Shown here: positions 1 to 2,137 of the stretch, piece after piece | How positions within the stretch are numbered: the first letter of the stretch is position 1 | How the letters are laid out: every line of letters starts with the position of its first letter | Translations under genes and position numbers: made by a program | The notes under the pieces: generated by a model | What the model was told of the DNA's origin: nothing | What the model saw: the letters and a program-made list of their open reading frames with translations, nothing else | Databases searched by the model: none | IMG/VR virus record: IMGVR_UViG_3300005329_000001 | DNA from: a virus | Lineage: Duplodnaviria; Heunggongvirae; Uroviricota; Caudoviricetes | Direction: 5' to 3' (one strand) | DNA length: 64,000 nt

Positions 1-1043
1 TTGGTGATGTACGAGTACTTCTTTGGAATCGGCAACTTCATGGCAGCGAGCGTCATCGCCTTCAGACGGCGCTCCCAGAAGGTGAGAGTTCCCTGCTCCA
101 GGCTGTCGAACGTGTGCTGCACGAATTCGTCGACGAGCGCGGCGAATTTCGAGATCAGCGCCTGCTTCGTCCGCTCACTATATTTCAGCTCCTCGCGAGA
201 AGCGCTGATCTGCACATCGCCGATCTTGAAGTAGAGCGACCCAGAGACCCGGAATAGGTACTCGGCGATGCCGTTGCCGTTATTGTTCTCGGCTCGGAGC
301 TGGCTGAGATCGACGCGGTAGGGAATGCACCCCATGGTGGCGACCCACAGGTGCGACCCTCCATTCATTGGCTGGTCAGTGATGAAGCCATGCTTCAGTT
401 TCGTTGCGGCCGACGGTGGAGGCGGCAGCTCGATGTTGATTTCGGGTTGCGGGTCGAAGTGCGTGAAGAGCTTGCGGGCCTTGTTGTGAAACTCGAGGAC
501 GTCATTCGACCGGACGGCGATGGAAATCTCGATGCCGGTCTCATCGTCCTTGCAGTCCTCCTCGTGAATGAGGTTGATGACTCCTGCGTCGGATTGGTCG
601 AGGGCAGCGACGTAGATGCGCTTCTTCTTGTCGTGCCACGACGTGATAGTGAAGCTGTCCGAGTAGGCAAAGCCGCTCTTCGAGCCGATGCCGAGCATGC
701 CGACGGCGTCGTCATTGTCTCGCTTGGTGCTGGCGCCGTACTGTGTGTAGACAGTCATCACCTCGTCGAGGGAGAGCCCAGGACCGTAGTCCCGGATGCT
801 CAGCGTCGGCGCCATCGAGGTGGGGATTGTGACCGTGATGGGCCTGTCGCCTCGCCCCGCCATGCGGTTGGCGTCCCAGGCATTCGCGCTGTACTCGCGA
901 AGAACCGCCATGATCTTGTCCGAGTAGATCTGGTCTCGGAGGATCGACATGATGAAGGGCGAGTCCTTCAGGGAGATACCGAACTTTGCGCTGGCGGCGA
1001 TGGGGCTCGAGGCGAGCTCACGATCCTTGGTGTTCGGGATCAT
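1..1043 (-). CDS. GHKL (Bergerat-fold, HATPase_c-like) ATPase, N-terminal about 347 aa; the C-terminus runs off the window start
   Basis: I translated the minus strand from ATG at 1043 (RBS AGGAGAAGG). The product begins MIPNTKDRELASSP. It carries an N-box EYSANAWDA, a G1 box RDYGPGL and a G2 box GMLGIGSKSGFAYSDSF, which is the diagnostic GHKL motif order. The gene is not in the ORF track because it has no stop in the window. The plus-strand ORF 351..1193 is its antisense shadow. Confidence 0.6.
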   Translation of the reverse strand, partial: MIPNTKDRELASSPIAASAKFGISLKDSPFIMSILRDQIYSDKIMAVLREYSANAWDANRMAGRGDRPITVTIPTSMAPTLSIRDYGPGLSLDEVMTVYTQYGASTKRDNDDAVGMLGIGSKSGFAYSDSFTITSWHDKKKRIYVAALDQSDAGVINLIHEEDCKDDETGIEISIAVRSNDVLEFHNKARKLFTHFDPQPEINIELPPPPSAATKLKHGFITDQPMNGGSHLWVATMGCIPYRVDLSQLRAENNNGNGIAEYLFRVSGSLYFKIGDVQISASREELKYSERTKQALISKFAALVDEFVQHTFDSLEQGTLTFWERRLKAMTLAAMKLPIPKKYSYIT

Positions 1044-1051
1044 GCCTTCTC

Positions 1052-2137
1052 CTACTTTGGCGGGAGTGGTGTGAAACTGACGTGCGAGACGTCAGCCTCC
1101 CATGTCTTCGACGAGCACATTGCGGCGTACTCGTACTCGTTCTTCGGTTCGTACGACCAGTTCTTCTTGCCGTGCGTGAACTCAATAGAGTAGTGCTCGT
1201 AGCGCTCTATTCGCTGAAGATCACCGACGGCTTTGAGATCTGGCTCCGTAGTTCGGCAGGTGGTGTTCGACGTCTCCTGCTTCGCCGTGTTCTCCCAGGA
1301 ATAGTAGTCGTATTCGCACCAAGATCCGTAATCCGGGCAACTGTCGTAGCAGGTTCGGTATCGAGTTCGGTAGCACGTGTCGTAGCAGGTATCGCAGCTT
1401 CGGTGAGTCTCGACCCGGCTGTACCCGTTCCGCTGGCTCGATGTCGTGGTGTATGTCGAGCAGTTGCATCGGTGCGGCCGGCAGGAGTAGCTCTCCTGGT
1501 AGGGATTGCAGTCGTGCGGATGGCAGCGAACGTAGCCGCGGAGCCTAGTCTCACAGGTGCTATTGAAGGCGCTGAAGGGCTCTCCCCAGCCCGATCCGTG
1601 CCTGGTGAAGCGCTGCTGGAGAACGCGGGTCACCGACCACTGCGTCTTGGCAACGACGACAGTGACACGGTGCGTCCTGAACAGGTTGTAGATTCCTGCT
1701 GGGATCGCGATGCACCCGACGATGCAAGCCGCAGCCAAAAGAATTCGTGTCTTCCTGAACTTAGCGATCTTCAGGCGAGCTTGGTTGGCGGGCCGAACGA
1801 ACGGCCCCGCCGGCTTTGTAGGCTTCAGCCGCGACTGTGTTGGCGGAGGAGCCTGCTCATCGACCGTTGCACCGCACTCCTTGCACCTGCCATGGAAGAT
1901 GCGGTTGTCGGCCTTGCAGAAGGGGCAGGTCCGGTTTGCGCCGGCGGTCGCTTCCTTCAGCTTTTCGGGATCAGTGACGCGCTGGTTGATGTCACCGGTC
2001 GTGTAGGTTTCGTTCTTCTCCTTTGGAGAGTCGCACTCGGTGCAGCGAAGATCGTGCCCCTTATTCTTGTGCTTGCAGGATGAGCAGACCCAGGTGTCCT
2101 CGACGTAGTAGACGTCGATGATCTCGTCGTCCTTCAT
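1052..2137 (-). CDS. Membrane protein: N-terminal double zinc ribbon (two C-x2-C...C-x2-C pairs), one TM helix, and a Cys/Tyr-rich C-terminal domain
   Basis: ORF track. Motifs CSSCKHK...CTEC and CPFCK...CKEC. TM segment ILLAAACIVGCIAIPAGIYNLF. The C-terminus has more than 20 Cys (CDTCYDTCYRTRYRTCYDSCPDYGSWCEY). RBS AAGGGGG upstream. Confidence 0.55.
   Translation of the reverse strand: MKDDEIIDVYYVEDTWVCSSCKHKNKGHDLRCTECDSPKEKNETYTTGDINQRVTDPEKLKEATAGANRTCPFCKADNRIFHGRCKECGATVDEQAPPPTQSRLKPTKPAGPFVRPANQARLKIAKFRKTRILLAAACIVGCIAIPAGIYNLFRTHRVTVVVAKTQWSVTRVLQQRFTRHGSGWGEPFSAFNSTCETRLRGYVRCHPHDCNPYQESYSCRPHRCNCSTYTTTSSQRNGYSRVETHRSCDTCYDTCYRTRYRTCYDSCPDYGSWCEYDYYSWENTAKQETSNTTCRTTEPDLKAVGDLQRIERYEHYSIEFTHGKKNWSYEPKNEYEYAAMCSSKTWEADVSHVSFTPLPPK

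Follow-up and report, generated by a model that had tools for sequence, protein, structure and literature searches.

The closest described counterpart of the locus analysed here is the rIIAB operon of T-even phages, through which these phages overcome RexAB (PMC10312443). A published account of RIIA gives it a GHKL domain, a C-terminal domain that varies, and a role in counter-defence (PMC7824862). Anti-defence genes can adjoin rIIAB, as pCARD does in Acinetobacter phage 133, and RIIB of phage T6 triggers CARD-gasdermin systems (PMC10312443). Here we analyse a GHKL ATPase gene and an adjacent gene for a zinc-ribbon membrane protein at the start of a 64,000-nucleotide stretch of DNA (the window) from an uncultivated jumbo phage (IMG/VR record IMGVR_UViG_3300005329_000001). 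An initial annotation, made from the letters of the window, had proposed that the two genes form a signalling or defence-modulating unit. By sequence comparison, the ATPase gene belongs to a divergent rIIA-rIIB locus; the membrane-protein gene beside it is probably an independent orphan, a neighbour through local synteny and not half of a dedicated two-gene module.

The parent contig, which carries the identical ATPase gene, has 210,361 bp (ENA ERZ27264918 k141_5812483, locus L001 below). Its phage origin is indicated by a baseplate wedge homologue and a full-length tmRNA gene in the window and by the 210-kb parent contig. The membrane protein of 361 amino acids is encoded identically on seven metagenome contigs, of which L001 is the longest. 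Megablast of window positions 1–7200 against 50,697 GenBank phage records gave zero matches, so no cultured close relative is found among them. The gene order in L001 is thyX, the membrane-protein gene, rIIA (693 amino acids), rIIB (379 amino acids), an open reading frame (ORF) of 90 amino acids and a gene for a PARP of 474 amino acids. ORF listing and translation confirmed the placement of the ATPase and membrane-protein genes, both on the minus strand. The latter had been described as lying downstream of the ATPase gene; the two are neighbours, but with both on the minus strand the membrane-protein gene is the upstream (5') one in transcription. As had been noted, the C-terminal half of the ATPase lies beyond the window. 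The missing sequence was recovered from L001 and yields a full protein of 693 amino acids.

Assignment of the ATPase to the rIIA family

The 347 amino acids encoded in the window match the PHROG 612 profile ('RIIA lysis inhibitor') with an E-value of 2.7e-96, and six other RIIA PHROGs also match, the E-values of the RIIA families ranging from 2.7e-96 to 5e-18. The full-length protein matches PHROG 612 at E 3.7e-96, with the match restricted to residues 1–348. BLASTP against T4 rIIA (NC_000866) gave a collinear alignment of 384 amino acids from the N-terminus at 28% identity (E 4e-30), in which the N-box, G1 and G2 motifs are aligned. By tblastn, 2,914 GenBank phage records match the N-terminal 45–59% of the protein, none of them with a query coverage of 80% or more, and the matches overlie annotated rIIA genes in Vibrio, Streptomyces and Ruegeria phages.

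An rIIB gene follows directly in the same orientation, 12 nt after rIIA (L001 13189–14328, 379 amino acids). Its product carries a precomputed Pfam Phage_T4_rIIB assignment, matches PHROG 609 (E 2e-60) and is 33% identical to T4 RIIB over 211 amino acids (E 2e-38); an NCBIfam scan gave no named family for it. On these similarities the GHKL ATPase is identified as an rIIA homologue, and its partner gene rIIB lies immediately past the window start. Rather than a new stand-alone GHKL ATPase, the protein belongs to one of the longest-known families of phage genes.

The same searches bear on the possibility that the protein is a conventional GHKL enzyme, such as a topoisomerase II (GyrB/ParE) subunit, MutL, Hsp90 or MORC, and not rIIA. 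A weak match to a topoisomerase profile, PHROG 543 (E 9e-5), points that way, but the RIIA profiles are better by about 90 orders of magnitude in E-value and rIIB directly follows the gene. Neither Toprim, MutL_C, Hsp90 nor any other Pfam domain is found in the 693 amino acids. The NCBIfam matches, to HSP90, sacsin and Topo VI-B at residues 31–180, are all sub-threshold and far under the cut-offs (33 bits for HSP90 against a cut-off of 455). We give this reading next to no probability. The initial annotation had named a conventional GyrB/ParE or MutL homologue with the usual downstream domains as the outcome that would undo it, and profile searches recovered no family-specific downstream domain in Pfam, NCBIfam or PDB. 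The full-length protein has no Pfam family at E≤0.01, nothing above any curated Pfam or NCBIfam cut-off and no match among PDB sequences. Homologues at 50–58% identity do carry Pfam HATPase_c_3 and HATPase_c.

The locus resembles that of T4 in several respects. The N-terminal GHKL motifs are collinear, the lengths are similar (693 amino acids, compared with 725 in T4), an rIIB gene lies directly downstream on the same strand, and the C-terminal half is divergent, as is typical of the rIIA family (PMC7824862). It differs in that neither T4 rIIA nor any PHROG profile is detectably similar to the C-terminal 345 amino acids; this half of the protein is lineage-specific. In T4, rIIA is preceded by the 67-residue rIIA.1 and then by topoisomerase gene 60, whereas here it is preceded by the zinc-ribbon membrane-protein gene. 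A WGR-PARP gene after rIIB is a further difference.

By homology with T4, rIIA and rIIB most likely act together as a membrane-associated counter-defence system. They would protect the infection from RexAB-type prophage-encoded abortive-infection systems, as in T-even phages. The term 'defence-modulating' in the initial annotation was thus loosely right for rIIA, in view of the action of rIIAB against RexAB (PMC10312443), but its extension to a pair with the membrane protein is unsupported. At E≤0.01, PADLOC defence models gave no match for the membrane protein, rIIA, rIIB, the 90-residue ORF, the PARP or the major vault protein (MVP) homologue described below. The most prominent feature of the region is hence an ordinary one, a divergent rIIA-rIIB locus as in thousands of large phages, and not a new defence or signalling module.

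Relationship between rIIA and the membrane-protein gene

The order thyX, membrane-protein gene, rIIA, rIIB, small ORF and PARP gene is shared by the window (L001) and by L006 and L007, which are related to it at 60% identity. In three further relatives at 57–59% identity (L002, L004 and L008), two or three inserted genes separate the membrane-protein gene from rIIA, exactly at their junction (Table 1). The junction is thus an insertion hot-spot in three of the five close relatives. It looks like a hot-spot for accessory or anti-defence genes beside rIIAB, comparable to the position of pCARD in Acinetobacter phage 133 (PMC10312443).

Outside this clade the association was not seen. No rIIA or rIIB is found near the membrane-protein gene in L005 and L003 (43% and 37% identity to the window protein, respectively), nor within about 6 kb in 12 IMG/VR loci (L009–L020, 27–35% identity) and three loci from metagenome-assembled genomes (MAGs; L023–L025, 29–38% identity). 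These absence calls, none of 17 distant family loci being positive, were made by tblastn with the window proteins and by profile hidden Markov models (HMMs) built from five rIIA and rIIB sequences of the clade, and they cover about 6 kb on each side of the gene. In the reverse direction, the 2,914 phage records with rIIA-like genes contain no family member at tblastn sensitivity.

The neighbours at the distant loci are mutually unrelated, among them a VWA protein, a DnaJ-kinase fusion, a peptide deformylase, a clamp-loader subunit and a KaiC-like ATPase. In L017, a viral contig, the fusion (7627–8655) adjoins the gene of a distant member of the family and joins DnaJ (E 4.8e-17) to a eukaryotic-type Ser/Thr kinase (Pkinase, E 1.8e-28). 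When the ORFs of 20 loci were clustered all against all, no gene except the family itself was common across clades; shadow ORFs in the high-GC close relatives inflated clusters in this analysis. The most constant neighbour is thyX, which directly precedes the gene in L001, L002, L004, L006, L007 and L008 and is separated from it by a gene of 92 amino acids in L005.

Because the adjacency is confined to one close clade, is interrupted by insertions at the junction and is absent at the 17 distant loci, we interpret it as local synteny. The unit of ATPase and membrane protein proposed initially is not supported by this comparison: its two genes adjoin only among relatives at 57–60% identity, and are separated in three of the five. 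The membrane proteins form an independent family, widespread in large uncultivated phages, with no fixed gene partner.

Three points weigh against this interpretation. At the distant loci about 6 kb was covered on each side, so rIIA could sit elsewhere on those contigs. The spacer is only 8–11 nt in the window and in L006 and L007, the ribosome-binding site overlaps the stop codon, and the two genes have no terminator between them. Finally, the T4 rII proteins are membrane-associated according to the older literature, which makes a membrane partner plausible. The tight spacing could reflect a functional link between the membrane protein and rIIA that is specific to this clade, but we consider such a link unlikely.

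A fuller version of such a link would make the zinc-ribbon membrane protein, rIIA and rIIB a three-part unit within the clade, in which the membrane protein anchors or regulates the rII ATPase through its ribbons and couples it to the status of the envelope. Besides the spacing, this is favoured by the identical order of the genes from thyX to PARP in L006 and L007, by a distance of at most 1.3 kb between the same genes in L002, L004 and L008, and by the precedent that genes beside rIIAB can be anti-defence genes, e.g. pCARD (PMC10312443). But all loci with the adjacency are 57–60% identical relatives, so their synteny has little independent weight, and thyX is the steadier neighbour. The insertions at the junction, the 17 distant loci lacking rIIA and rIIB nearby, and the failure to trace the family in rIIA-bearing phage records count against the unit as well; we regard it as improbable. 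A still more specific form, which we hold to be slightly less probable again, is that the membrane protein is the membrane-embedded partner of rIIA-rIIB in this clade, its ectodomain sensing or contacting the envelope and its cytoplasmic RanBP2-type fingers docking the GHKL ATPase. If true, a three-component rII system would offer a structural handle on what the rII proteins do at the membrane.

Local synteny remains the preferred explanation. The genes thyX, membrane protein and rIIA are most likely co-transcribed, since the spacers between them are tight and contain predicted ribosome-binding sites, and simple consensus scans of the minus strand over positions 1–7600 found no promoter-like or terminator-like site.

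Domains and fold of the rIIA homologue

All motifs of the Bergerat fold reported initially at the N-terminus of the ATPase are intact. The N-box is E50-x3-N54-x2-D57-A58, within 'REYSANAWDA'; G1 is D85-x-G87-x-G89, within 'IRDYGPGL'; and G2 is G115-x2-G118-x-G120, within 'GMLGIGSKSGF', with K122 also belonging to the motif set of the GHKL domain. The N-box, G1 and G2 residues are invariant in alignments of homologues. Since every catalytic motif is intact, the rIIA homologue is probably an active ATPase that hydrolyses ATP.

An AlphaFold2 model of the 347 window-encoded residues, computed from an alignment of 15 sequences, has a mean predicted local distance difference test (pLDDT) score of 80.4 and a predicted template-modelling score of 0.77. 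Its fold matches are the ATPase domain of T6 topoisomerase II (17.1, 267), TRAP1 (17.1, 267), the 43-kDa fragment of ParE (16.8, 258), MORC2 (15.7, 261), the N-terminal domain of MutL (15.3, 246) and Topo VI-B (15.0, 272), where the first figure in brackets is the match score and the second the match length. Structures that consist of the Bergerat domain only align with the model over just 130–160 residues, which argues that the window part of rIIA comprises the GHKL domain and a transducer-like domain. The model thus answers the question, raised in the initial annotation, of whether a transducer domain follows the GHKL domain: a transducer-like second domain is predicted there.

The segment 'ASRE' (A281, R283 and E284), which lies in the second, transducer-like domain, is invariant. 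By analogy, R283 may be the residue that senses the gamma-phosphate. The residues of other GHKL enzymes on which the analogy draws are K337 in GyrB, K307 in MutL and R380 in Hsp90. R283 of the invariant 'SRE' is therefore a candidate sensor that is testable in T4.

With topoisomerase II, MutL, Hsp90 and MORC the protein shares the N-box Glu and Asn, the glycine loops of G1 and G2 and the succession of GHKL and transducer domains, at an identity of just 10–18%. It lacks their Toprim, MutL C-terminal, Hsp90 C-terminal and CW/coiled-coil domains. Those enzymes act through DNA-gate or client-binding domains, whereas rIIA works with rIIB instead. The model supports the view that the N-terminal half of rIIA is a full GHKL-plus-transducer module whose catalytic residues are intact. 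This is an argument for rIIA being a functional ATPase that switches conformation, as MutL, Hsp90 and MORC do.

Architecture of the membrane protein

The protein encoded next to rIIA consists of two zinc ribbons, a Pro-rich linker, a single transmembrane (TM) helix and a C-terminal domain (Table 1). The latter has 208 amino acids, including 14 Cys, 18 Tyr, 9 His and 6 Trp. The ectodomain had been credited with more than 20 Cys and many Tyr; the Tyr residues are there, but a Cys count above 20 holds only for the whole protein, which has 24 (eight in the zinc ribbons, two in the TM helix and 14 in the ectodomain).

The initial description of a membrane protein with two C4 zinc ribbons and a TM helix was upheld by pattern matching for the ribbons and by hydropathy for the helix. 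Ribbon 1 has the exact W-x-C-x2-C-x3-N-x6-C-x2-C pattern of RanBP2 fingers (PF00641), and the Cys and Asn spacing is kept in ribbon 2. The eight ribbon Cys are invariant in an alignment of 40 family sequences, as are W167 and W281, so the ribbons are not a chance pattern. The Pfam model Zn_ribbon_RanBP (PF00641) matches ribbon 1 at E 1.5e-5 and 24.6 bits, under its 27-bit cut-off, and it matches 16 of the 40 family members. A family profile searched against PDB found only the fingers of RanBP2, Nup153 and Mdm2; the best match was RanBP2 (E 1.8e-7), and Nup153 aligned at query positions 63–107. RanBP2 fingers are known in eukaryotic nuclear-pore, ubiquitin and RNA-binding proteins, whereas the ribbons here belong to a phage membrane protein. 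Membership in the ubiquitin-binding NZF subclass was rejected. The Thr-Phe pair after the second Cys is missing from both ribbons, its place being taken by Lys-His in ribbon 1 (C-S-S-C-K-H) and by Lys-Ala in ribbon 2 (C-P-F-C-K-A).

In the AlphaFold2 model (overall pLDDT 74), residues 155–200 and 270–357 form a beta core with pLDDT of about 85–95, and residues 200–270 form a long beta-hairpin insert that carries the Cys repeats at a lower pLDDT of 52–74. A TM helix that leads directly into a small OB-like barrel is also found in YhhM/DUF2500 (PDB 3q6c, 3rd4). YhhM lacks both the zinc ribbons and the Cys-rich insert, there is no sequence match in Pfam, and the scores are in the range of generic OB/S1 barrels. 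The resemblance is one of fold only and not of membership. A BFVD fold search with the membrane protein gave nothing at E≤1e-3.

A family of jumbo-phage membrane proteins

An HMM search of 1.84 billion cluster representatives found at least 2,360 family clusters, defined at 50% identity, at E≤1e-3, of which 1,490 are retained at E≤1e-10 and 328 at E≤1e-30. A word-index protein search had given only ten homologues, so that the family looked very rare; the exhaustive profile search reversed this impression. Nearly all members are full-length, at 350–450 amino acids, and have a common architecture. The number of repeats in the Cys-rich insert is variable, with units of the types 'CxPHxCN' and 'TCY(D/R)' gained and lost between homologues (alignments A1 and A2).

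Topology and disulfide content, both singled out for checking in the initial annotation, were assessed statistically on 139 full-length members. Every one of the 139 has exactly one hydrophobic segment. Lys and Arg flanking the helix average 3.1 on the N-terminal side and 1.6 on the C-terminal side, with an excess on the N-terminal side in 98 members and on the C-terminal side in 18 (Wilcoxon p 3e-15). The single segment and the positive-inside bias across the family support a predicted N-in/C-out topology. The number of ectodomain Cys is even in 115 of the 139 (binomial p 2e-15). This bias supports the view that all ectodomain Cys are paired in disulfides, of which the window protein is predicted to have seven.

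The Cys/His/Tyr-rich domain might alternatively be a metal-binding or redox module, for example a metallothionein-like one that sequesters copper or zinc, and not a disulfide-stapled finger. Its C-x-P-H-x-C motifs repeatedly pair Cys with His, and in distant subfamily members His-rich stretches replace Cys. But the even numbers of Cys are a signature of pairwise disulfides, Cys counts shift by two with the repeat units, and the predicted extracytoplasmic location would be oxidising. A metal module accordingly strikes us as quite unlikely. A zinc-binding anti-sigma factor was also considered and rejected, as a single homologue (P0011) matched such a model, at 16 bits compared with a cut-off of 100 bits, and no sigma-factor gene adjoins in the listed loci.

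Relatives are found on IMG/VR viral contigs of 27–424 kb, at loci with a GC content of 43–63%. Among 185,579 species genomes, a pattern-limited scan turned up four loci only, all on MAG contigs of 10–163 kb. Tblastn with three family members against the 50,697 GenBank phage records gave no match. PHROG, NCBIfam and PADLOC have no model for the family, and its Pfam matches are confined to the zinc ribbon. A literature search for a zinc-ribbon/TM/Cys-rich jumbo-phage protein returned nothing relevant. On balance, this is probably a large family of membrane proteins of uncultivated jumbo phages for which we found no description in Pfam, PHROGs, NCBIfam, PADLOC, PDB, BFVD or the literature searched. 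It is the only mildly novel element of the locus.

A partial match was observed in L026, on the Methanosarcinales MAG contig CAYUUQ010000039.1. There, a stop-free frame of about 1,200 codons (3155–6766) matches only the Cys-repeat segment, residues 205–267, at 36–38% identity. It may be a Cys-repeat module common to both proteins or a compositional match.

Possible role of the membrane protein

We tentatively suggest, with low confidence, that the membrane protein is an early-expressed accessory protein directed to the envelope. The suggestion is based on where the gene lies, amid genes for nucleotide metabolism, replication and accessory functions, and on how variable the ectodomain is. In the predicted layout, the ribbons and the Pro-rich linker lie in the cytoplasm, the chain crosses the membrane once, and the beta-rich ectodomain carries a disulfide-stapled Cys/Tyr finger made of repeats. 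The variable ectodomain could contact the envelope or a periplasmic component, and the cytoplasmic ribbons could recruit a cytoplasmic partner. Superinfection exclusion and envelope sensing are plausible roles.

The proximity to the 'r' genes raises another option, a lysis or lysis-timing factor of the T4 holin T or antiholin type. In T4 holin T, a short N-terminal stretch in the cytoplasm and a single TM helix precede a large periplasmic domain with a disulfide, and the N-in/C-out topology predicted across the family agrees with this arrangement. But the protein matches no PHROG, whether of a lysis family or another, and its cytoplasmic region of 130 amino acids with two zinc ribbons has no counterpart in known holins. 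All loci moreover have a nucleotide-metabolism, replication and accessory context, with no endolysin/spanin cassette. For want of both similarity and a lysis cassette, a holin or antiholin of the T4 T/RI type was rejected as a candidate; a role in lysis has, in our view, very little likelihood.

The gene next to rIIA brings to light a large family of phage membrane proteins that has no annotation. Its members have RanBP2-type fingers and a disulfide-rich, repeat-variable ectodomain, are abundant in metagenomes and were met in none of the GenBank phage records searched. They look like proteins with which huge phages interact with the envelope, and would be a reasonable target for structural and functional work.

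Table 1. Positions of the genes, spacers and domains at the start of the window, and of the insertions at the corresponding junction in related loci
Feature	Position	Strand	Basis or remark
rIIA homologue, 5' part (codons 1–347 of 693)	<1..1043	minus	Translation; rest past window start
Second, transducer-like alpha/beta domain of rIIA, residues ~196–290, then long helices	174..458	minus	
GHKL (Bergerat-fold) ATP-binding domain of rIIA, residues ~25–195	459..971	minus	
Spacer membrane-protein gene/rIIA, 8 nt	1044..1051	minus	'ccaaagTAGGAGAAGGCATG' on minus strand; Shine-Dalgarno-like GGAG overlaps TAG stop
Membrane-protein gene, 361 amino acids, complete	1052..2137	minus	ORF
Predicted extracytoplasmic domain, residues 154–361	1055..1678	minus	Beta-rich core 155–200 and 270–357, small OB-like barrel
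Cys/Tyr/His-rich insert, residues 195–274	1316..1555	minus	12 of 14 ectodomain Cys; 'CxPHxCN' and 'TCY(D/R)' repeat units
Single TM helix, residues ~131–153 (RILLAAACIVGCIAIPAGIYNLF)	1679..1747	minus	Kyte-Doolittle maximum 2.35; model helix 130–153
Zinc ribbon 2, C71-x2-C74-x3-N78-x6-C85-x2-C88	1874..1927	minus	Pattern match; spacing as ribbon 1, leading Trp missing
Zinc ribbon 1, RanBP2 type, W16-x-C18-x2-C21-x3-N25-x6-C32-x2-C35	2033..2092	minus	Pattern match
Spacer thyX/membrane-protein gene, 20 nt	2138..2157	minus	Shine-Dalgarno-like AGGGGGA read on minus strand
thyX (flavin-dependent thymidylate synthase)	2158..3114	minus	Pfam Thy1, E 2.6e-36
Insertion at junction in L002	L002 9102..10356		RNA ligase and two ORFs of 65 amino acids
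Insertion at junction in L004	L004 9088..9995		Fic-domain protein flanked by ORFs of 66 and 67 amino acids
Insertion at junction in L008	L008 4471..5371		ORFs of 131 and 165 amino acids

Other genes of the window and of the parent contig

The block upstream of the membrane-protein gene (2158–4250, minus strand) encodes ThyX, a phosphoesterase (PHROG 547, E 5.8e-54) and an RNA methyltransferase of the SpoU family (Pfam E 8.2e-17). At higher coordinates lies an ORF of 931 amino acids (4351–7146, minus strand) whose product is a homologue of the eukaryotic MVP, with a Pfam MVP_shoulder domain (E 1.4e-23) and a weak Vault_3 repeat. PDB chains of MVP match residues 529–803 at E-values of about 1e-15 to 1e-16. 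As read from the sequence, a long C-terminal stretch of coiled-coil character comes after the shoulder, resembling the cap helix of vaults. The MVP homologue is kept at 60–70% identity in L002, L006, L007 and L008 and is absent from L004. A preprint reports that gut phages encode viral MVPs (bioRxiv 10.1101/2023.11.10.566534).

Just beyond the window start, on the same strand as rIIA and rIIB, L001 14628–16052 encodes the protein of 474 amino acids with WGR, PARP_reg and PARP catalytic domains. This gene follows rIIB in all five related contigs, and about 7 kb separate it from the gene for the MVP homologue. Since eukaryotic vaults include a PARP (vPARP) besides MVP, the co-occurrence of the two genes here may merit attention. 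Earlier work has recorded PARPs in jumbo phages (PMC7824862).

Three very large ORFs lie on the plus strand of the window, at 38108–41482 (1,124 amino acids), 43848–50660 (2,270 amino acids) and 57094–61803 (1,569 amino acids). The first two have no PHROG match at E≤1e-5, and residues 55–245 of the third match a PHROG of a baseplate wedge subunit. The tmRNA gene at 17974–18334 on the minus strand is full-length, covering positions 1–374 of the 374 of the Rfam model RF00023 at 125 bits, with a gathering threshold of 47 bits. The tag peptide given by ARAGORN is ANDNVRVQSNLSAPLQAAA.

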